DNA of 60,876 bases from Girardia tigrina (lineage: Eukaryota). Positions within the stretch are counted from its first letter, which is position 1. Each line of letters starts with the position of its first letter. Position numbers and translations under genes: made by a program. Below, one piece after another: positions 167 through 60,367 of the stretch. Below the pieces are notes generated by a model that saw nothing but the letters and a program-made list of their open reading frames with translations, made no database searches and was not told the DNA's origin. The stretch covers positions 3,609-64,484 of the forward strand of contig MQRK01250323.1 in NCBI GenBank assembly GCA_001938485.1, given 5' to 3'.

Positions 167-1075
167 ACCATCATTGTTGGTCTCCTTCCGGATTTAGTTT
201 TAATAGTAAAAACATAATTACTGGGTACTCCCCATTGATTCCTTTTTTCAATGTTCCTGTATTCATTATCATCAATCTTTTCTATATCTGGATTAATAGG
301 TTTCATTTCTTTCAATTTAATAAATGGATAGGAAGGAAGAGGTGTTAAATTTGCAGGTGGATAGTATAAATTTTGATCCAAAGTTTCTTGATTTCTCAAA
401 ATTTGAATTTGATTTTCATATGTCGTTCACTGATTTTTGGATACACCTGTTGATTGAGATTGATCTGTACCGGTTATTTCGTTTCCATTATCATCTTCAT
501 TCCTTCTTTCATCACTCGTTGTACTTGGATCACTAAATTAATCATCTGAATTTGACTCAAATTGTACCTTTTTATTTTTTCCTTTCCGATTTCGACGACT
601 TATATTTTTTACACTGTTTAACTGTTGTTTTTAATGAGTTAATTTCTTTACTATGGTGATGGATAATTAAAAATTTCGCTAAAGTGGGTACACATCCCAC
701 TATCAATTGCCAAGATACACCAACCATTGTATACAATTTATAAGTCGACACAACTTGTGTTAAGACAACTTTTAACAGAACATATATCACATAGACACCA
801 ATAAAGCCTGAACATGCCTGACCAAAGAAAACAAATTTTCCCCAAATCTTTTTTAGAGTATTATATGCTGCTTTTTGATAATAATCAACGCTTAAAAAAT
901 TATCATAATTAACCTGACCAAAACCTCCTGGTGGGACAGTCTCAACAATTTCTGTTATAACTCTTTCTCATTTTGAAGGAAATAATAAATTTCTTCGTGC
1001 ATCCTACACTTCTTCAGGGGCATAAATACCTGCGGTAGACATTTGATCCAAAGATGTAAAGTTTATAAGATAATC
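167..1075 (-). pseudogene. Decayed C-terminal part of a chuvirus-like (class III) viral glycoprotein / env-like gene
   Basis: Minus-strand translation: MSTAGIYAPEEV*DARRNLLFPSK*ERVITEIV...KKIWGKFVFFGQACSGFIGVYVIYVLLKVVLTQVVSTYKLYTMVGVSWQLIVGCVPTLAKFLII. This matches the GIY...FP, W..F..FG..SG..G and TM pattern I recall for chuvirus glycoprotein EVEs. It has about 4 stops, one frameshift near 600, and a long hydrophilic tail. Confidence 0.7.
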
Positions 1076-10602: not shown

Positions 10603-11593
10603 ATCTAGACTAATATTTAGAATTTATGACATACATGATTTTTCTTTCCCATCAAATAATAAGTGTTTTTATATAAGATTTTCATGCTTATTTCAAATCT
10701 GAAAACGCTTTGATCTATCACATCGTGTTTCAAAAAGGAGGACTTAACCGTTTTTTTAGAGTTTTTCTATACCCTACTTTTATTGCATTCGAAATATCCA
10801 ATATAGTCGCATATCGTAAGTTCACTAATAAAACATATCGACATAGGAATATATAGATGTATAGTACAATTTGATAGTATTGGAAAAGTGAGTGGCTACA
10901 TAATAATGATGGTCTTTATTAACGGTCTACCTTCGTGCATGGGACAGGAATTGGTAAAAAAGGTTACACTGATGCCCCGCAAATGGTCGATGAAATCGGA
11001 ACCGTTGTCAAGGAAACTGGAACCATTCATAAGCGTTGCTGATGAAGCTGGAACCGTTGCCATGTTTACGGGTACCCCTCCGGATCGCTCTTGAGACCGG
11101 AGGTACATGTATCGAATGCCCATTTTTCCCTACTTACTTTCATGCTAAGTTAATGTAAGAGAAGGCACAAATTTGTACATCTATGATATATTCAACGAAA
11201 CTATTGAAGAGGTCAAGGCTCTTTATATAAATATGTTGGGACCAGTGAGTTTTTCCTTCACGTCAGCCTCAGGCCTATTCATTGCACAGGCACCGAGGTA
11301 GGCGAAGGAAAAACTCCTAGAACCTAAAAAACTAAAAATAAAATATTATAATTTATAATTAATTAATTAAAAAACAGAAACTTTTAATTGGTTTTGACCC
11401 TTGGATCCTGTCGATTTGAATATTTTCTTGTGAAAATTTGATGGCCTGATTTGTTGACGTGGGTTTGATCGGAATTTTGGCCCTCTCCGGGTTGTTTCTA
11501 TCTGAGAACTGTTGACTTAGTGATGTATGATTGAAGGTTGACTGTGAGAATTGTCTGCTTGCTGGTTCTGTGAGTTTTTGTGACAAAAGATTG

Positions 11594-11602
11594 GTATAAA
11601 TT
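11594..11602 (+). promoter_or_regulatory. TATA box of family B
   Basis: GATTGGTATAAATT is conserved at ~49955 in copy 2 and lies upstream of the ORF in both copies. Confidence 0.55.
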
Positions 11603-12016
11603 CATCCGAATTTGTGCACTTGATCAGACTTTTCTTTGAATAAATTTTATTTAAAAAAATTTTTGTTTTGTACTTCGGTAATTTTTGGATTTTATTTCCT
11701 TTTTTAAAATTTGATGGAGTTTGGGGAACATCCTCAAGGCTGCCGATCTGTCGATAGATAACAGTATGGGCTTATAGTTCCTGCCGAGACTATTGACCAT
11801 CAGGTAGGGAATATGAACAGGTTGTGAGGTAATTTGATGACTGTCGATCTGTTAATAGATTAACGGTAGGTGCTTATAGTGCCTGCCGAGACTATTGACG
11901 ATCTGGAAGTTTGAGAAAGTCCTTACCAAGTTTCATTTCTAGAAGAGAATTCGTTTCTCTCAGCCTCCATCAATTATTTTTTGTTTTTTTTATTTTTTTT
12001 AATCCACTCATCGTTC

Positions 12017-12795
12017 TGGATAGGAAATATAACGAAAACAAAGAGCAACAAAGAGAACTGCTGCTGGAGTTGCAGAAATGGAAATGCGAATGTGCCAAGC
12101 TGAATGACGAATTAACGAAGAGGACAACCGAATTTGAGGACTACAGAAAGCATTCAAATCCTCTATCAATTCATAAACCGGTTGTGGATAAATATTTATT
12201 GGGACAACAGAAAATAAAGTCCTTGCAAAACGAGGTCACCGAGATGAGAATTCAGCAAAATATGTCCAGCTACTACAAGAAAGTGATCGAAAAAGTCTCA
12301 GAAGAGCAACCGGAAATAATTATAGAAACAGCAAGCAAGATTGGACCAAATACGGAAAAGAAGCCTCTGGTGACGAATCCAAACATTTATGGGTCAATTA
12401 TGAAAGAGTATAAGGTATCATCTTCCTCTTTGGTGCTCAGCAGATCTCAGAAGCGGCGGGAGCAGAGGAAGCGAAAGGCTCAAATGTTTCAACAGGCCAA
12501 TAATGATCTGCAAGCTGTTTTTAAAACCAGTTGTATTGAGGTTGACGTCCAAGATGGAAAGACGGTAATCAGAAATGACACCAGTCAAAGAGAGTCTTCT
12601 GATTTTGATACCTCGCATCAAATTTCGTTGTTTTTTCCAACAAATAATTTCCAAGGGACTATAGAACAACAAGAATGGCTGAACTTTAAGTCAAAACTTA
12701 AAATTCAGAAGGAGAATCATGACCGCCTACAGTTCCGCTCTATCACAACTGGTAAAGGGGAAGAGTTTGTCAATCTATCAGATTTAGATGATTAG
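12017..12795 (+). CDS. Uncharacterised coiled-coil protein inside family B unit (start codon probably mutated)
   Basis: Longest gap-free ORF in the window (open 11911-12795). Its paralogue at 50273-50747 conserves the amino-acid sequence (PLSIHKPVVDKYLLGQQKIKSLQNEVTEMRIQQNMS vs PLSVHKPMVDKYMLSQQKIKALQVEITELRIQQNMS) with many synonymous changes. Confidence 0.75.
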
Positions 12796-13034
12796 GGACG
12801 ATGGGTGGATTGCCTTTGATTAGCATTTTCTTTTGTTATATTTTAATAAAACAATGTCAACATATAATTTGTTCATGTTCTTTTAACTTTAATCTCGGAT
12901 ATGAAAATGATAAATTCATAATAAGAAATATAATAATCAAATAAAAAAACATGTTGAGGAAAATATAAGATAATAATTAACTAAATAGAAGTAGCATAAG
13001 CCAACTTTCATAGACTTAATATATTTAAATATAA

Positions 13035-14571
13035 TGTAGAACCCAATATGTACTTCATCAACTTCACTGGCGAGATAAAAGGGCCAGTTGAGGTTGATGG
13101 GGTACGATATGGATCTCTAATAAGTGTGAGTTAGAGACACTTAGCGGAGAGACATATCTAAATAATATGTTGGGTTAAAATAGACTAAGGTGCTAAAGAA
13201 TACCATGAAAAAAATAAATTTAATTAATAAAATCCAACACTAATAATATCACACCCAACAAATATGGATTACAATCAAAGGAAATAGAACGACCAACTAT
13301 ACCGAAAGAGTTGCGCATTCTATGAATTGACTTAGTATTCAAGTGATCTGAATAATGGGTCAGATAAAGTAACCCAAATAAAGTCTCATCCTGACTCGTC
13401 CCGGATAATATTTCAACCGGTATGGTTATTGTTACGATACGACTGCGAATAATAGTCAGAAAAAAAACTCGACTATCCCCGTTAATGGTAAATAGGTCCC
13501 GAGCGTGTTGGAGCGAAGAGCAGGCGAAGGGTTCCCCTGATTTCTTTTCCGTTCCATGCCCGATTAAGCCTGTCGATAAAAGAACCTCTTGAAACCCTCT
13601 GAAAACAAAAATAGAAAATAAACAAATTTTAATTAGATTAATTAAAAATTACCCAAATGATTAAACGTGAATCATAACATCGTCAAAAGCTCCGTGGAAT
13701 AAACAATCGGTAGATTCTGACTGCACTCCGAATGATAGCATATCCGAGACGAAGGACTATGGGTGACCGACCTGCAGATGTCTGTTCTGAATGAAATAAA
13801 TAAATCAGATGAGAGACCCCTCACCCGCGAATAAACAGATAAACCGGATTGCAAGACCTTTCCAGATAGACGACAACGATACCTGCAATCTACAGCGATT
13901 AGAACTGATGTACCCATGAACCACTTATATTACCAATCCACAATGTGAAGCAGCTTCTCTGTTCTGAAATGACAGATAATCTAAAATAATTAAACTAGAG
14001 ATCTTAAGAACAGACATTCGCAACAAGACGTCGCGACTTCCCTCTCGCATCCTGTCAGATAAAAGGTAAACATCAAGATTGCGAATGATATCTGTTAGGC
14101 GCGCACAGGATGTCACTAAATCGAGACCGTTTCCTCTCTCACATCCTGCCTTGAATCAACAGTCTGATAGATACACAGAATGCCCGAACATTCCGATAAA
14201 TATGTGCATCCGGTAGGGTATAAATACTCGAACCGGTTTGTACAAAGTGACACACACAAGAAACAAACCCCAAAATCGCACTTACTTATCATTTTGTTTA
14301 ATTTTGCGTACGATTCCGAAGACGATTATTATTGTTGGCAAAACTTATATTAATTTTGGGAACTAGCCTATTATCTTTGGACATATAATTGATCGAGAGT
14401 ACGGTTAATTATTGTTTATTATTATTATCTGATTCATTATTAATAAAAATCTATCTATATGATCCAGTCTTGTTTTATTTAAATGTTGCTAATAATGTCT
14501 CATTATGATATCTAATGTTTTATATTTTAATAACGAAAGTCAAGTTGATGAAGTCGACTCCAATCGTCACA
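13035..14571 (+). mobile_element. Long LTR (family E, ~1.5 kb) followed by a degenerate PBS and leader
   Basis: TGTAG...TCACA termini, TATAAATA at ~14219 and AATAAA at ~14442. It is followed by AAAG-TAGAGGCTGTCGACC, which resembles a decayed tRNA-Pro PBS, and a GC-rich hairpin at ~14625-14660. Confidence 0.6.
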
Positions 14572-15989: not shown

Positions 15990-16420
15990 CGAGGAACCCT
16001 TTGAAGATGACGCAGGCTGCCCATAGCATGCAAGGGGCACGCGGGCAGACCAACGTTTATCTTCTCGGGGCTATCTTCGTTCCATCTAATCTAAAATGAT
16101 AATTCATGAGTTTAACTTATAACGATAAAATGAAATGACGTATACCCCTCAGTGCCTGAGCTACCAGTCGCGCCATACTCGTTACAGGTTGAACCCGAAG
16201 GCGATGCGATGTACACACAACTCGTTGATGTGAGCGGAGGAGACGCGTCTGTTCCCGTAATGATTGATGAGTTATTGAGGGGAGTCTGGAATAAGTATGA
16301 GTTGCCGTTTAACTCAAAAAGTGGATGGGAGCTAAGAGCTTGCCAAAATGTTGTCGAGAGGAGGGAACACGACATTATCGTTTGACTTGACCGCCGAATC
16401 GATCGCTCCATTTCGATAGT
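15990..16420 (-). mobile_element. Internal fragment of LTR-like family C
   Basis: Colinear nucleotide similarity to 48785-49245, including the splice-site positions. Confidence 0.75.
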
Positions 16421-29431: not shown

Positions 29432-30318
29432 GGAGTTACAGCATTAATTACCCTAGTGATTTAATTTCCTCTCGAATTAATTTCCCTAAATTAATGCTTA
29501 AGAGAAGAATAGAATTACACATTTTACAGTGAATTAGAAATATTTAAGAAATGGTAGATATAAATTTTCATAAAATATTAAATAAAATACCTTTTTTATG
29601 ATAATAACTCAAAGCATGAAAAGATAAATAAAGAAAATATAAACGATGAAGCAAAAAATCATTTTTACTTAACATTTATTCAAAAAATGACTTTTAAGTC
29701 TGAAATCTGCTTACGACAAATGGCACATTTAGAAAATTCATTATTGTGGACTGCAGTATTGATTATATTTTTTGTGCAGTCATAGCATACGTTTGCATGT
29801 CCACATGAGTGATGTATGCTTCCAGCATTATGTTTATGACAAATCATACATATTATTCTGTTTGTTTGTGAATCTCTGTTCATGCAATCAAAAATACGTA
29901 GAAGCCTTACATTTTGTATCAATGCAGTATTATTTGCAGTCTCACTTGATTCAATCAAGTTTTGTTTAATCAAGTATAGAAGTGAATTTGGAAAATTTTG
30001 AATGTTCAAATGTTTCTGAATAAATGAGAATTTCGATATAGAATTGTTCAAGAGCTGCTGTCTTAAATGGGGGTCTACTGTTAAAAGTGCACTTGGATTT
30101 CTTTGTCTAGATGTCGATCGATCCGTGCCGATTCGAAACTATAATCCACAATTGTATTATTTAATTGAGTTATTGCATTAATTTCCCCAAGGAATTAATT
30201 TCCACAGTGAATTAAATTAACATTCAATAATAAAATTAAATTTATTAAGAAATTAATTCACTGGAGAAATTAATTCACTAGGGAAATTAATTCAGTGGGG
30301 AAATTAATGCGTTACTCC
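29432..30318 (-). mobile_element. Nested MULE-like element carrying a RING finger
   Basis: GGAGTWAC termini with 17-bp AATTAATTTCCC subrepeats and direct flanks TTTTAAT (7 bp). Confidence 0.75.
29680..30051 (-). CDS. C-terminal RING finger (C3HC4, IAP/MDM2-like) ORF fragment
   Basis: CMIC...SCGHANVCYDC...CAICRKQISDLKVIF* retains all 8 ligands and the hydrophobic terminus. No clear ATG. Confidence 0.8.
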   Translation of the reverse strand: MNNSISKFSFIQKHLNIQNFPNSLLYLIKQNLIESSETANNTALIQNVRLLRIFDCMNRDSQTNRIICMICHKHNAGSIHHSCGHANVCYDCTKNIINTAVHNNEFSKCAICRKQISDLKVIF

Positions 30319-47655: not shown

Positions 47656-49394
47656 TATGGTGTTTCTGTCAAACGACCGATATTAAAAAAACTCTTTAAA
47701 AAATTGATTTTGTTTAATCAAATCAAACAAATATGTTTATGATACCACACTTTTAAATTTTAATATTTTGAATACAAATAAAATGCTCTTCAACAACATC
47801 TTCATTCTTATTCTACTAATATATTTTTTTAATTCCCTTGAGCGATCCACAAAATGCAACTGTTCAGTTCAGACCGACTGACACCTCACTCAAGTTATCG
47901 GTATTCAGATGAAACACAAATCGATCGACTAATCGAACCAATCACCATCCGAGACGGAACCGATCGCCAAATGGGGATCGAAACGCAACTGTTACGATTG
48001 CAAATGTTACGATGCAAATGTGTGGTCCTTACACAACTCCTCACGCATGGAATAGTCGCAACAAGAACATTATCAAAAATAAAAAGATAGGAAATAATCA
48101 AGCTAGACCATTCCCGTTATTTTTAAATAATCCCACCCAACATGATGTACAACCCAGAGAACCATAAAGGTCCACACCATCATGTCAGGTGGGGGTGCAG
48201 TCACAGTCCATTACTAAACTCTCAGAGGCCGTAGAAAGCTTCTGGTATATTTATCAATTTTTCTAGATTATATTTAAATAATAGTTTTTTTACTTATGTT
48301 ACATTTTTCCCATTAAATATATTATTCAAAGTATAAAACGTTCGTTCATAATTGGCTTGTTCTTCGTTATATTTATGTTCATTTCTTTAAGTGTCACTTT
48401 TAATTCTTTTAATTCATTTTCATATGTAAATATTGGGTGTAATTCTATAAATATTAAAACTATTATTACGTACTAGGATTTCTTTAACATACTCATAACT
48501 CTTTATTATTTTAACAATTCAACCTCACAACTGTGTCAGTAAAATTTCGGGTGTCGATATTCAAGATTAATTATATCAAATAAATTTAATTTAATTATTC
48601 AATTTATTTTATGTGAGTTAATATCAACCTAGGACGAGAGGATATTAAAATGATAAATTAATTAAGAATTAACTTGAAAGTTCAATCTAAATTTTGAGTC
48701 AAGGTTTTACATATTAAAGTATTATATAAAAGATTCAGTACTCCAATTAATTTAACAACTAATTGTAATTACTAAAGATTCAAAGAACCTTTTGGAGGTG
48801 ACGCAGATCGGATCGCAGTATCCATAGGGACACGCGGTTCGATCATCGTTTACTTCCTTAAGGCTCCCTTCATTCTATAAAATTAATGAGTATGAATATG
48901 TAACTTAAAATGTAATGCGATAATTTCAACAGATCCAAATCGATAAAAGATTATGGTTTCACAAATTGGTTTAATATATTGACTAGATTTAATAGATTTA
49001 TCAACCCCATCAGACGCTGCAGCTCCGGTCGGGCAATACCCGTCACCTGTCTGAACCCGAAGCGCACACAACTCATTGATATGCGTGGAAGAGACTCGTC
49101 CGTTCCCCGAGTAATAGTGAACGGTCAAAGCCGTGCGAGTTATCGGTAAGATCAAAAAACGACTGGGGCCTCGAGCCTGCAAAAATGTTGTGAAAAGAGT
49201 GGAACGCGACACAACACAGAACCACCACGAGTCGGTCGCTAGTCCGACATCTGATGACGCGTCGTCCGATAGTCACTGGATCCGATCGGCACGCGGACGC
49301 CGTCAAACCGACACGGTGATCTTCCGGGACACCAAGTCCCGGCACATCTAAGAGATGCTGACCGCCGCTACTCGGTCCGGCAGTCGACACCACA
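47656..49394 (-). mobile_element. LTR-like family C, long copy (1739 bp)
   Basis: TGTGGTGT...ACACCATA ends with 5-bp TSD ATTAC (47651-47655 and 49395-49399). Confidence 0.85.
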
Positions 49395-49587: not shown

Positions 49588-50910
49588 TGTTAGAATCAGA
49601 AAGTTTTTCCTTTGGCTCGGCCTCGGGCCTATTCATTGCACCAGCACGGAGGCGGTCAAAAGAAAAGACTCCCAAGATCTGAAAACCGAAAAATAAAAAT
49701 GATTATAATTATAAATTATAACATAACTTAATTAAAAAAGAGAAACTTTTAATTGGTTTTGGACCTTGTTCCCATTTGAATTGAATATTTTCTGGTGGGA
49801 ATTTGTTGACCTGATTTGTTGACGTAGGTTTGACCGGAATTTTGGCCGTCTCCAGATTGTTTCTATCTGAGAGCTGTTAATTTAGTTATGGATGATTGAA
49901 GTTTGACTGTGAGAATTGTCTGCTTGCTGGTTCTGTGAGTTTTTGTGACGAAAGATTGGTATAAATTTGTCTGAATTTGTACATTCTACCAGAACTTTTA
50001 TCATCAAATATATTTTTTCAAAAGAATTTGACTTGGTAAATTTTGCCTTTTATTTTTTTTGTTGATGGAGGTTTGGAGATGTCCACATGGCTGCCGATCC
50101 GTCGATGGGTAACAGCAGGTGCTGATAGTGCCAGCCAAGCCTGTTGACGATTTGGTTGGGAAAAGACGTTATTGTTAAACTGAGGATTTGTTTTTATTTA
50201 TCTCCATCAACTATTTTTTATTTATTTTTTTATTTACATCAATAAATTCACTTTATCATTCTCATTTAGTTAATGAATCAACCGATTTATGAAAAAGAAG
50301 ATAGAGGGTTGCTTCATGAGCTTCAGAAAAGGAGGGAAGAAATTGACAAAATTACAAAAGACTTGTCCGAAAAAAATAACAGAGCTCGAGGAATACAGAA
50401 GAATTTCAGTTCCTTTATCAGTACACAAACCGATGGTGGACAAATATATGTTATCGCAACAAAAAATAAAGGCATTACAGGTTGAAATTACCGAGTTGAG
50501 GATTCAACAAAATATGTCGGAGTACCACAAAAAGATCATAAAGAAAATCTCCAAAGAAGTTCCCGCGATGATATTGGAGACTGCTTCTAGAATTGCAGCA
50601 AAGGAACCCATGGATGCGAAAGACCTTACTTCATCTTCAAAAATTCATGAATCTATCACTAAGGAAGATATGATGGCATCGATGACCGGAAAAATGAGCC
50701 GAACTAAGAAAAGTCGCAACTATTCCGACAAGCAGAAACTGAATTGAAAAAGTTTCAAGGTTCAGGCCATTCCGATTCATACCAAAAGAAGCAGAAAAAT
50801 ATCCAGCAAAGTGGCTGTGAATTAGAAGAGATTCCTTGCTTTAATATGAATGAACAACTCATGGCTACAGTGCCTGGTGGTGATTTATTGGATGATTTCA
50901 ATTTTTAATA
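49588..50910 (+). mobile_element. LTR-like family B, copy 2, with frameshifted coiled-coil ORF (50273-50747)
   Basis: Starts TGTTAG and is colinear with 11234-12850. ATG at 50273 and a frameshift in the A-run near 50370. Confidence 0.7.
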
Positions 50911-50984
50911 AATCTTTAATATGCAAAGTTTTTTTCATATTTTTTTTCATATTCTTGAGTTGTACTGCATCGGATGCGCCTCTT

Positions 50985-51440
50985 TTTAGCATAAAAAATC
51001 ATAATTTTGAGATTGAGTTTAAGGAAAATTGATCGATTAAATGGAACTGAAAAAGTGAGGCACCGAGTCATCTTCCGAATAGCCAGTCAGTTTTTAAAGA
51101 CAACAAATTAAAAGATGTTGCAACGTTGAAAATTTTAGACGGTTGGGTAGAAAAGGGTTATCTAATCGAGTTCAATGAGAAAGAAATGGGTAAATTGATG
51201 GGATTCATACCGATATTTGGAATACTACAGGCTAATAAGTCCAAGATAAGACCCATTTTTGATTTTAGAAAATTAAATAATTACATGGACATTTATAGTG
51301 GTTCAGCAGATATATTTTTAGAAAAGCTCCGCGATTGGCGACGTAGGGGTTCGACTTTTTCAATGCTTGATTTGTCAGAGGCGTACATGCAGATTCATTT
51401 TCATAAGGAGATGTGGCATTACCAATCTTGTATCATTACA
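50985..51440 (+). pseudogene. Gypsy-like reverse transcriptase N-terminal fragment
   Basis: WVEKGYL...IPIFGILQANKSKIRPIFDFRKLN...LRDWRR...LDLSEAYMQIH. Confidence 0.88.
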
Positions 51441-54400
51441 ATTAAAATGGTATCAAATTTGTATAAAAATATAATTATAATTAAATGATTTTTTAAAAAT
51501 TAGGTGGTAAAAAATCATTATGTTTATTTAAAATTGAAAAAGTGACAATTTGTATTAAAAGAATAATTATAATTGAATGTTTAACCAATTAACGAAGAAT
51601 AAAATATTAAGAAATTTAATTTTAACAATAGATGTACCATTCAAATATTATAAAAGATCTAAAATTATATTTAAGTTAACTGGTTTTAGATAAATAATAT
51701 TGAAATAACAACATTTAAATAATTTAGATTACTAGAAATTGTTGTAAAATACGTTTAAAAATGATTTAAAATAGAACAGTTATTATTTCGATTTTTATAA
51801 TGTATTTTGAAGATTTTTATAAAATAATAAAATCTTAATATATAAATTAACGTAATCAAAAATAAATTCAATTTTAACGTTTTAATAACACAACATGATG
51901 AATTAGCGATTCTGTACAAAGATGATTAGATGAAAATGAAGAATGATAATATTCTAAAAACAAATAAATTGCGACATTTGCAGTTGGTAAGTATAAATAT
52001 GCTAATGTGAATTAAGAATTCCACGAAATTGAATAAATAATTGAATTATTTAAGGTAATGCGATTTAATTAATGAGAAACTTGTTGAATATAAGAAATAT
52101 CATGGAATACCTGATGCTAATGTGCTTGGACTACCAACAGTTCATAACGTAGGTATTATAAACATTAATAAACGTTTTACAATTATCAATAAAACATTTA
52201 CAATGAAGTATGCATTTATAAAAAATGTGTACACAGAATATGTTTTCTAGAAAAGTTTTAATTTGCTCTATGTATGCTATCTTACAAATAGTATGTATCA
52301 AGTAGAGTATGCATAGTCTAAATATTATTTTAATATATATTTAAAAATTTTTATAATCGTTAACCTGCAAACATTGTGTTAATCAAAATTAAAATATTAT
52401 TTGTCTCCCATTATCATAATAACAATACCCGACAAATTTGAACTTTTTTTAGACAAAGAAGTCTTTACCTCTATTATATGCAGAATTTGATGCTGAACAC
52501 GAATATTATAGTCGTTTTTCTCCTATACGTCCAGATTTTTTGTTATCTTATCTTTTTTATTTACTTTGAAAAAGTGCAAAAGTTCGAGGTCGAAAACCAG
52601 TAACACAGTACTTATGACGAAGTAATTTATATTTTAAGGACTGCAAATCATCCAGCAATAGTCAGCCATCATTCTCTGATCTGCTCTTCTTTGATATCGC
52701 TGTTCCAGTGTTTAAAGGGTCTGGTTCACCATGTTCATCTGTGACCTGTTCCATCTCGAATGGGAAAAAGTCAATGTGACTTTTTAGAAAGTGAATTTTT
52801 GGAGACATATTCGCCTTCATCAGTTCAAATGCATCCAGCATTTCTGAAACTATATCTCGGTAATCAGGAGATCGATGTTTGCCTGAGAAAAAAATAAAAA
52901 TAAATTGCAAATACCATTTGATGTTATCTTACGTATGTTGTTCAAATGATTGAAGTATGAAAACATACCAAGAAAGTTTTCCACACCTTTTTTAGCATTC
53001 CAGGCACGCAATTCAACTAGGGGTAATGCTTCTTAAAACTACTGACTTTTCATTAATTTCCTCGTATCTGGCTCAACAAAGACAACATCTTTTATTTTGG
53101 CTGCTGACAGTCGCGGACAAATATTCTTTAGTGTTTTCATTGGCTCATCTTCCGAATCAAAAGCCTTGATGAAAATTTTGAAAATCCCAAACTCGATATG
53201 CAAAGGTGGTAAAATTACCTTTCGAGGTGGTACAAGAGCTTCGTGGAGGACATTTTGCACTCCTGGTGTTCGATTTACACGTTCTGGCCAATGGTTTCTG
53301 CTGTAATGCTGCTGACGCGCTCTGCTATCTCATAGAGAAATAAAACAATTGTACTTGGTGTAGCCACCCTACATCCCAGTGAGCATTCCGATGATTTTTA
53401 AATCAGAACAAACTCTCCATTTGAAGTTTTCGTAATGAATTAGCTCAAATATCAATTTCAATGAGGAGTAGGATTCTTTCACTTTCCTGGAATAGGCCAC
53501 TGGAAGTGCAGGAAACTTGTTGTCCTTATGGAGGAGCACAGTCTTCATACTATCGACACTACCATCAACAAAGAGCCACTAGTCCCATTTCACATTCGTG
53601 TGAATGTTCATTCTCGAAACAAGACTTTCAACTTCATCGCAGTAGACCATCTCATCGCAATCACTTGTTTTGAAGAATTCCACGAACATCTTATCCCTTG
53701 CCCTGTAAGCCGTCGTGTTCGTTTCTGCTACTAAAACACCAAATTGTTTAAGCATGGTTGCAGCAAGATAGGAACCATCTTTCGATAACCCCAATTTTCT
53801 GACAAAACTATCAAGTTGATCTTGGTTGATGGTTTTACATGTGTGTTCCACGTCATTTGGTCTCCAGTTGGCTTCCATGTCATCAGGTGTTTCTGATACT
53901 TTCTCATCGCTGTCAGAAAGAATGTTCAAATCCTTCGGTGGAAATCCTAAAAGGTGGAACAGGAGGCTCATCTCCTGTTTCATATGGTCTTTGTTGGTAA
54001 ATCAGGATAATAAATAAAATGAACTGTCTTTTTGCTGTGACCACGAACACTTGTCAAACAGAAGTGACAATCGTTAACATGATCCATCTGCTCACTCCAA
54101 GCCATTGGATTTGAAAATAGCATTTGTTTCAGTTTTCCAGAGGACCATAGAGAGAGATCAGAAAACATTTCTGGCAGACGCAATGGGGCGCAAATGACTT
54201 GTTCTGGTCTCCTATTTTCATTTTAAAGTAGTGAAAAAAAGGCTTTGGATTCTGGGAGTAATGGATCTCGATGCACCTTTAAATATATATTTTCCACAAA
54301 TATAGCAAAATTTATTGGGATCTTTGACACACTGACGTCTATTCGACATAACCACAAAAAAATATAATTGTTTAAGTATAAATTAGGTAATGATATTAGA

Positions 54401-58492: not shown

Positions 58493-60367
58493 TGTAATAT
58501 AACGATTTAAATCATTTGTTTAAATCGTTCTTGTGAGGAATATTTTAAATTTGGTATGTTGAAATTGGTTTGTTGAATTTGGTATGTTGAGTTTAGTATT
58601 TGGAAATGTGTTTCTCCCACCCAGGTGGAAAATTAATATTTTAGATGTTCACGATAAATAATTGTTCGAGTATAATTTGCATTTTAAAGTACAACATAAG
58701 ATATTTAAAAACTTTAAAAATATTAAATCGTTTCAAATTTTCATATTAAAATTGAAATAAAGTAAATAGTTTTAACTAAGTTTTGAATTAAATAAATGTT
58801 CTTTCTTTCTATAAAATAATTTTTTAAATAAAATTAATATGTAAATAAAATTATTACTAAAATTACAAAATTCGAACTTTAAAAATAAAATCTGAAAATA
58901 ATGAAAAATTTGTTCGAATAGTTGTTTATTAAAAAACATTAACTAAAAGTTATCAATTTAGGACGATGTCGAATTACGAAAGTTTTGCTGAGAGTTGTCC
59001 AAAAGACAATTTTAATTGTATTGAAAATAAAAGTTCGAAAACCCATGTTGGTGTTCTTAATAGTTCTATTGCAGAAAACGGAGTTTATTTAAAATACAGA
59101 TTTATGAAGCTTCGTTAATTCTTTTTGATTTAGATTTAACATCACAAGCTATCGTGGCATGAAAAAATTGCAATTCGCGGATTCGGTGCCTCGGTTTGAA
59201 AGAACCAGTGATTTCAATGTCTGGTGTCGGAAATTCGAATCCCCTGCGGCAATCTGCGAGATCGACCAAATATCAGCACTGCCAATGATGCTAGAAGGAA
59301 GAGCATTCGAGCTTTTCGATGGGTTGCCAAAGAAAGATCAACAAGATTACGGGGAAGTAAAGATGCTGCTGTCAGAAGCATATGGACCGGATCCTTGGGG
59401 GGCCTAAGAAGAATTTCGCACCCGATAGCTCCGGGAGGGAGAATCAACGGAAGAGTTCGTGGCAGCATTACGAGCATTTATTGCGGGTCTCTCGGAAAAT
59501 GTTTCAAAACATTTGGTCTCAGAATCGACCAGAAGGACGGATAGACTACCGGAGTTGCTTCCGGTTGCCCGTGCGCTTCTTTGGATTAATCAATCGGATG
59601 CGGTACCATCAATACCAGTGGCTGCGATCAATGAGAATGGTACCATTAATCAAGTGGTAGCGATGGCGACGAACCCCCATCCGGATGTCAAAAAATCCCA
59701 ATGCTACAAATGTGATCAAGAGGGCCACATCAGACGAGAATGCCCGAGAGAACAAGCCCTGATAAATGAAGTAAGACTTACCGGACGGGTTAAATATTGT
59801 TTAGCGTGTGGTTGGTTAAGGGCTTACGAAGTTTTCGTGACACCCGCACCGCCATAAACCTGTACAACAAAATGGAAACGCGCAGCGGTAACATGGAAAA
59901 ATTTACCGCAACAAGTGGAAGTCAACGGGATGTCTAATCACATCAGCCATGTGCGTAGGGCACCACCAGAGGATAAAACTCCGGAGGATGACGAGATTAA
60001 CGATAGAAGAGACATATTAATAATAATAATAACGTTAGTTTTCTAGAAGCAGACAGCAGCAAACTCGAGAGAGCAGAACATGAAGAATCAGGCGGTGAAT
60101 CAACATCAGAAAGGCGACCTCGCAGGACGATCCGCAGACCGGGCTCGTTACGACGATTACAATTGCACAGGTGCGGCGGCAGTGGTCAGTTCCAGTACTC
60201 CCAGATGTTCGGACTGTGTCTGTCTTTGCGCCTTAAAGAAAGGAGGGCGTGTAATATAGCGATTTAATTCACTTGTTTAAATCGTTGTATTGCAGAAAAC
60301 GGAGTTTATTTAAAATACAGATTTGTGAAGCTTCGTTAGTTCTTTTTGATTTAGATTTAACACCACA
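58493..60367 (+). mobile_element. Internally deleted gypsy-like LTR retrotransposon (118-bp LTRs, gag remnant)
   Basis: TSD TTATG. 3' LTR 60250-60367 follows the PPT AAAGAAAGGAGGG. The 5' LTR 58493-59146 is split by an insert. gag 59159-59760 contains the CYKCDQEGHIRREC zinc knuckle. pol is largely deleted. Confidence 0.93.
58532..59062 (+). mobile_element. Solo LTR family A nested in the 5' LTR (531 bp)
   Basis: 5-bp TSD GTTCT; the empty site is visible in the 3' LTR. Confidence 0.9.

Follow-up and report, generated by a model that had tools for sequence, protein, structure and literature searches.

The window analysed here, a stretch of 60,876 nt of Girardia tigrina DNA, carries at positions 11234-13260 (plus strand) a solo LTR of 2027 bp with the ends TGTTGGG...CCCAACA, which belongs to family 1 of a Burro-like Gypsy clade. 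A genome search with positions 11200-11700 returned 1661 candidates, and most of the 40 that were scored begin at 11234. When 20 longer stretches were compared, the likeness extended over about 2.0 kb and gave way to unrelated flanks at either end, i.e. they are end-to-end LTR copies. The repeat has the TG...CA ends, the short terminal inverted repeat and the target-site duplication that are expected of a Ty3/Gypsy LTR, and a 4-bp duplication is present in 17 of the 18 copies in which a script located the right end (in 3 of 21 it did not). As the earlier note had assumed, the repeat is an LTR, namely that of a high-copy, env-carrying Gypsy retrotransposon. LTR length in the clade is 1.9-2.1 kb; the more distant families were reached by using the LTR protein and the pre-LTR motif, both described below, as search queries. 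The features of the locus are as follows.

11230..11233 and 13261-13264, plus strand: left and right target-site duplication, 4 bp, AATA
11223..11282, minus strand: short antisense frame, 19 aa in the window (16 LTR codons, then flank)
11247-11316, folding on either strand: conserved U3-edge stem-loop
11276..11288: 13-nt apical loop, holding the minus-strand ATG (11282-11280); core TCATT in families 1, 2, 4 and 5
11324..11381, minus strand: predicted 58-nt antisense intron with a weak donor GTTTCT, a T-rich tract and a TAG acceptor
11595..11601, plus strand: TATA-like box, predicted sense promoter; a similar box was seen by eye in families 2-5
11740-11807 and 11841-11909, plus strand: two copies of a ~70-nt unit, ~75-90% kept in families 3, 4, 5 and 6
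12016..12795, plus strand: LTR-encoded orphan protein of ~258 aa with predicted helices, a basic RREQRKRK stretch and an acidic C-terminus
13039..13179, plus strand: right-hand LTR block, ~81% kept in family 4
49588..50946, plus strand: copy 2, a truncated LTR of the sister family (family 2), with the ATG at 49636, an acceptor at 49679, a donor at 49746 and a frameshifted LTR ORF near 50277-50747

The ~70-nt unit (11740-11909 in the window; also L297) can fold into either of two hairpins. Every family retains it, and family 5 has it in tandem arrays; it is a candidate packaging or dimerisation signal. Some LTRs are mosaic. When L247 and L291 are compared with the window, the left end of family 4 is family-1-like and its LTR ORF is only ~50% identical, which points to recombination between families. 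A second, unrelated repeat family lies near both LTRs of the window, at 16145-16256 and 49006-49107 (72% over 114 nt).

Internal genes were found on several copies. A left flank was common to 2 of the first 60 copies, and in L042 this flank carries the integrase end on the plus strand. The 30 junction rows used below are matches to the L042 left flank, i.e. 3′-LTR junctions, some of them duplicating one locus. In L112, which retains both LTRs, the 5′ LTR is followed by a 9-nt spacer, the PBS and then PR-RT-RH-IN, all on the same strand; the PR-RT-RH-IN order was found in L112, L121 and L127, and gag, a fusion-glycoprotein env and PR follow one another in that order in L377 and L121. A 665-aa ORF of L377 contains PF24664 (E 3e-40) and continues in frame into the start of PR, and the Gag of L114 has Retrotrans_gag and zf-CCHC as two Pfam stretches, with three CCHC motifs recognised by eye. 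The join of LTR end and PBS has 29 matches in the genome. Since the plus strand carries the PBS as well as gag, env, PR, RT and IN, position 11234 marks the edge of U3, and the loop ATG is antisense. An integrase motif of the YKGPFE type lies 816-882 nt from the 3′ LTR in 13/13 rows in which it was located; with the integrase end less than 0.9 kb away, there is no room for an antisense gene.

We call the clade Burro-like because its gene layout resembles that given for the planarian giant Gypsy element Burro in section 7 of PMC6431247: a Gag with CCHC knuckles, a mononegavirus-like fusion glycoprotein in frame before the protease, and RT-RH-IN. Burro has an internal region of up to 25 kb and a polyprotein of ~5000 aa. 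The copies seen of the present clade are deleted or fragmented, none exceeding ~8.5 kb from LTR to LTR in the fragmented assembly. No named Burro sequence was among the matches of an integrase search. BIR, BCL2, MATH, ankyrin and SUMO-like domains had no match in the scanned ORF pieces, which make up a minor part of the internal region. Section 7 of the Burro account (PMC6431247) makes no mention of an LTR ORF, antisense introns, a U3 hairpin or a missing polypurine tract, and nothing on an LTR gene or a missing polypurine tract appeared in excerpts of PMC8532177 or in a term search of PMC12440569. Literature searches on missing polypurine tracts and LTR-internal ORFs gave no description of the clade, and the original Burro paper or Repbase may already note these features.

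The earlier note had placed a minus-strand ATG in the apical loop of a long hairpin and had given a peptide for each copy. The ATG does lie in this loop, at 11282 and in copy 2 at 49636, and both peptides are correct. Of the three synonymous changes it listed between the two, CCT/CCC and CTC/CTT are variants of the window copy that are absent in most aligned copies. Among the best matches, the ATG is present in 30/30 family-1 and 27/30 family-2 copies, and it stands at LTR position 49 with the frame open to the terminus in 28/30 and 19/30, respectively; these rows were selected for their similarity to the window, and some loci appear in them more than once. The conservation it expected of ATG and frame across copies holds in such close copies and breaks down farther away. 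In family 5 the ATG is at LTR position 44 in another frame, and 7 of the 8 copies without gaps yield an altogether different peptide of 27 aa from the first residues on; the antisense ATG frame is absent in families 3 and 6 (in family 3 an antisense ATG open to the terminus occurs in only 4/20 copies, over 7-9 codons). With another frame in family 5 and the ATG missing in two families, it is best taken for a component of a conserved loop motif. By itself, a loop of 13 nt that holds an ATG followed by 15 open codons could arise by chance.

The long ORF beginning MNRPE that had been predicted past the terminus was not found either. When translated through the 3′-LTR junctions, the frame ends after 22 aa in 26/30 rows, after 13 aa in one and after 32 aa in another, the remaining two having no ATG or running into the contig end. 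In solo copies it enters unrelated flanking sequence, for 17-143 aa. Between families 1 and 2 the short frame has a pN/pS of 0.47 on ~10 changes, a number without power, as against 0.43 for a plus-strand frame, and its third codon positions vary somewhat more (4.7 of 10 changes per pair). Some 580 nt inside the element, over the integrase end, a hydrophobic antisense ATG-ORF of 80 aa recurs in family-1-type copies; it is absent from the checked family-2 and family-3 junction copies (L081, L292), and antisense open frames of 55-117 codons are found all along pol.

The long hairpin itself is real in the window copy. Its minus strand folds with -49 kcal/mol (z -7.9) and its plus strand with -38.5 kcal/mol (z -5.3), and 0/200 shuffles fold as well on either strand. 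The copy 2 hairpin in the window is not significant (z -1.2 and -0.6); that of another family-2 copy is. In an alignment of 49 selected copies 90% of the cells are paired, and a C-G to U-A change separates families 1 and 2 at the family level. Family 5, a diverged sister family, retains the hairpin with its apical stem and loop core; it shows a compensatory G-C to A-U change in the apical stem and, by eye, an exchange of T/A runs between the arms of the basal stem. Counted as independent cases, these covarying events are few in number. It had also been claimed that G-U pairs favour the minus strand. The minus strand folds better in 24/30 family-1 and in 11/30 family-2 copies; the large minus-strand energy advantage is copy-specific, and folding energies do not fix the strand. 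What stands of the claim is that the widely shared non-Watson-Crick pairs are mostly G-U on the minus strand, at three positions (19/19, 19/30 and 6/30), while any one plus-strand G-U pair occurs in at most 4 copies, which lends weak support to the minus strand. Family 3 has an unrelated left end with a long hairpin of its own, for which the plus strand is better in most copies, and family 6 (3 loci) is without the hairpin. From these two families it follows that hairpin and intron array are not essential to the clade. Since loop core and closing stem are fixed while the arms vary, the pattern would fit a protein-binding stem-loop and not a miRNA. An Rfam search gave six matches at E<=5 in four loci, all far under the gathering scores, and no ribozyme or miRNA family; a search for a long-range partner of the loop gave longest matches of 7-8 nt.

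Upstream of the ATG on the minus strand, an AG acceptor had been reported near 11329 in the window and at 49679 in copy 2. The latter is correct, and in the window the AG ends at 11324 (or 11332). The predicted window intron is homologous to a 57-nt predicted intron of family 5 and has a weaker donor; this GTTTCT donor occurs in 24/30 and 21/30 copies of families 1 and 2. The minus strand of the family 5 U3 contains four tandem predicted introns of the pattern GT[AT]AGT..TTT[CT]AG, 45-57 nt long, and the plus strand none (L289, L297, L299). The last of them ends at the hairpin base. None of 2000 shuffles reached four; the pattern was chosen after the family-5 introns had been seen, and as tandem duplicates the four are not independent. 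Donors GT[AT]AGT and acceptors TTTCAG presumably represent the host splice consensus. The array is present in 3 of 4 tested loci, the fourth (family 6) having two donors and no match to the strict pattern, and family 3 is without such an array. Seven unstranded assembled-contig runs, some only presumed to be RNA, contained no GT..AG or CT..AC joint of the predicted intron, uncovered parts being uninformative. One exact pattern for an intron-less LTR copy had 0 matches in the genome, and in metagenomes the 47 matches to the intron-less pattern included 0 from this LTR end. These sequence patterns make splicing of an antisense RNA likely for the clade and plausible for family 1. Thus, of the spliced antisense mRNA that had been proposed to start from the LTR, the minus-strand splice signals were recovered and the long HBZ-like ORF was not.

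The two junctions of LTR and internal region have peculiarities of their own. Past the 5′ LTR, the PBS TGGCGCCCAACGTGGGGC follows after a 9-10-nt spacer. We take this PBS to match tRNA-Lys; a host tRNA gene for it was not recovered. The spacer (L186-L214) is able to pair back onto the LTR end; where other LTR families of this genome share the PBS, their spacer measures 3-4 nt. At the 3′ junction the polypurine tract, the standard plus-strand primer (PMC10085805, in excerpts), is missing: within 60 nt upstream of the 3′ LTR the longest purine run is 3-5 nt in 29/29 junctions, and families 3, 5 and 6 likewise have no such tract. The last ~50 nt before the LTR instead hold a small hairpin and a C-rich motif that are conserved in all families (L081-L109, L275-L310). 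This stretch is 81-87% identical between families 3 and 1, whose U3 regions cannot be aligned, and the motif core has 59 matches in the genome as against 0 with a reversed control. We also considered whether the C-rich tract could be a tRNA primer site in inverted orientation. A T-loop pattern gave 36 matches as against 15 in the control, the identity being ~6 nt only, and ARAGORN found no tRNA in 30 fetched loci or in 360 loci of the own genome.

A gene for a protein kept within the LTR is rare outside retroviruses. In the window the gene is without an ATG at the start used by its relatives. Six relatives (P0001-P0006) share 40-91% identity, and the protein had 7 matches among 1.84 billion representatives and none in Pfam. 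In four gap-free copies pN/pS is 0.23 in the own frame as against 0.36-1.9 in the other five; within family 1 it is 0.23-0.37. Across families, at 40-48% identity, pN is 0.3 and pS is 0.8-0.9, i.e. near saturation. By its pattern of substitutions, the protein is under purifying selection. The arginine-rich stretch is kept in all full-length relatives, and a hydrophobic motif in the acidic C-terminus resembles a SUMO-interacting motif. The predicted model is helical and partly disordered (pTM 0.21). The fetched part of the family-5 LTRs does not contain the LTR ORF.

On balance, and with little more than even confidence, we propose that the U3-edge stem-loop, which compensatory changes have kept, forms the terminal exon of an antisense RNA that is spliced and probably acts as a non-coding regulator. 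A minus-strand promoter in the U3 would make an RNA with small 5′ exons, and splicing would join these to the hairpin. From the 3′ LTR, such an RNA would run antisense into the 3′ untranslated region and the integrase end, and it may damp the expression of the element through double-stranded RNA, small RNAs or transcriptional interference, with the conserved loop as a putative protein-binding site. Antisense-oriented introns could persist in an LTR because the plus-strand genomic RNA, which is reverse-transcribed, does not splice them. Since the ATG frame closes after 22 codons, the RNA would be regulatory rather than the message of an HBZ-like gene.

The main competing explanation, to which we give limited credence, is that the hairpin acts in the replication cycle, on plus-strand genomic RNA or on minus-strand cDNA, and that the antisense splice signals are a separate feature. 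Either hairpin and upstream motif together would define plus-strand priming in place of the polypurine tract, or the hairpin would serve in packaging or export, as a signal to which the basic protein of the LTR binds in the manner of Rex or Rec. The missing polypurine tract and the conserved junction keep this replication or RNA-export function alive for the U3 hairpin. It also gains from the position of U3 at the 3′ end of genomic RNA, from the plus-strand preference of the separate family 3 hairpin and from the persistence of the arginine-rich stretch. Yet family 6 keeps the upstream motif without the hairpin, family 3 has the protein together with a different hairpin, the fetched family-5 LTR parts have no LTR ORF, and the shared wobble pairs favour the minus strand. 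Much the same material could be drawn into a wider and speculative picture, which we consider unlikely, of the clade as an invertebrate Gypsy 'complex retrovirus' with a regulatory module in its LTR, consisting of a sense-encoded, arginine-rich accessory protein with the U3 hairpin as its binding site, an antisense RNA with several introns and a new mode of plus-strand priming, from the structured C-rich junction in place of a polypurine tract.

Readings that give the loop ATG a coding role fare less well. It is quite improbable that the ATG is a real start, either of a 22-27-aa peptide or short upstream ORF or, in solo LTRs, of an outward frame fused to host flank. The loop bases around the ATG are conserved, position -3 being a purine in families 1, 2 and 5, the ATG follows the acceptor, and in junction copies the stop keeps its place; however, frame and peptide differ in family 5 past the first residues, the ATG is enclosed in a stable stem-loop, the ~10 changes have no power to reveal a coding signal and the read-out lengths of solo copies are scattered. 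An HBZ-like arrangement, in which antisense transcription from the 3′ LTR and splicing give the mRNA of a long regulatory protein that starts with MNRPE, is very improbable. The splice signals, the conserved ATG and the 80-aa antisense ORF would suit it, but the frame stops early, the intron precedes the ATG, no strong donor was seen by eye before the stop, and the 80-aa frame is antisense to the integrase end, inconstant among families and one of many similar frames throughout pol. For a microRNA precursor one could cite the ~70-nt stem with its terminal loop and a sub-threshold Rfam miRNA match (29.5 bits as against a gathering score of 100); the loop is kept while the arms change across families, the opposite of what a miRNA needs, and we regard such a precursor as extremely unlikely. 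The alternative once offered, that the element reads in minus sense and the ATG begins gag, can be practically dismissed: a TGG 4 nt past the LTR end on the minus strand looks like a primer site, but it is the opposite LTR end that precedes the real PBS, the plus strand carries gag, env and pol, and the frame stops at 22 aa.

A predicted antisense RNA without a long ORF would work most like the BLV transcripts AS1 and AS2, which are spliced, start in the 3′ LTR and have little or ambiguous coding capacity (excerpts of PMC4855707), or like the antisense RNAs of Drosophila micropia, of similarly little or ambiguous coding capacity (cited in PMC7264820, in excerpts), and not like HBZ (excerpts of PMC1459196). 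It differs from the BLV and micropia RNAs in that its introns are tandem, lie wholly in U3 and end at a conserved hairpin, introns and transcript alike being predicted. With HTLV-1 HBZ SP1, as given in excerpts of PMC1459196, it would share the antisense sense, an LTR-borne ATG and splicing, here as signals only; whereas HBZ joins its ATG exon to a long internal ORF, the predicted intron here precedes the ATG, whose frame closes after 22 codons. The plant elements Retand, Grande and RIRE2 (excerpts of PMC7264820) are likewise Gypsy elements with antisense transcription, here predicted, near the 3′ LTR, but in them a long ORF separates pol from the 3′ LTR, whereas in our clade the integrase end motif is less than 0.9 kb away from that LTR.

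MMTV sag, HERV-K Rec/RcRE and HTLV Rex/RxRE are retroviral accessory systems that are LTR-encoded or act on the LTR. By analogy, the LTR-coded protein would resemble sag, and the combination of an arginine-rich protein with a structured LTR RNA would resemble Rec and Rex; there is no sequence similarity to any of them, and the feature seen of a Rev/Rex/Rec-type export system is the arginine-rich stretch. With the claim of an antisense gene gone, the headline of the earlier note is removed. The clade is a variant of the env-carrying Gypsy LTR elements, noteworthy mostly for its LTR gene, its missing polypurine tract and its predicted antisense introns. An env-carrying Gypsy clade that has a tightly conserved, structured junction but no polypurine tract makes plus-strand priming directly testable, and antisense U3 introns across many solo LTRs could give the host genome outward-facing spliced leaders.

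Several deleted copies (L111/L119, L112/L205, L194/L204/L209, L114, L120) carry host-like coding pieces between the PBS and the 3′ end, among them a 535-aa 2-hydroxyacid dehydrogenase ORF and a laminin-EGF piece (Pfam). Further pieces presumably resemble NOMO, Sec31 and a tetraspanin. These pieces suggest LTR-mediated capture of host mRNAs. In L201 (G000:C210375) a truncated PBS is joined directly to the unspliced antisense left end of the LTR (from position 230), and in L192 such a PBS precedes a piece of the fusion glycoprotein in antisense orientation; both joins represent either a template switch or a DNA rearrangement. Elsewhere in the window, the fragments 572-967 (minus), 29680-30138 (minus), 59429-59857 (plus) and 51051-51488 (plus), with matches to Monjiviricetes_fusion, a RING finger, a CCHC knuckle and RT, are remains of other retroelements, and the RT fragment at 51051-51488 has no match to the pol of this family.
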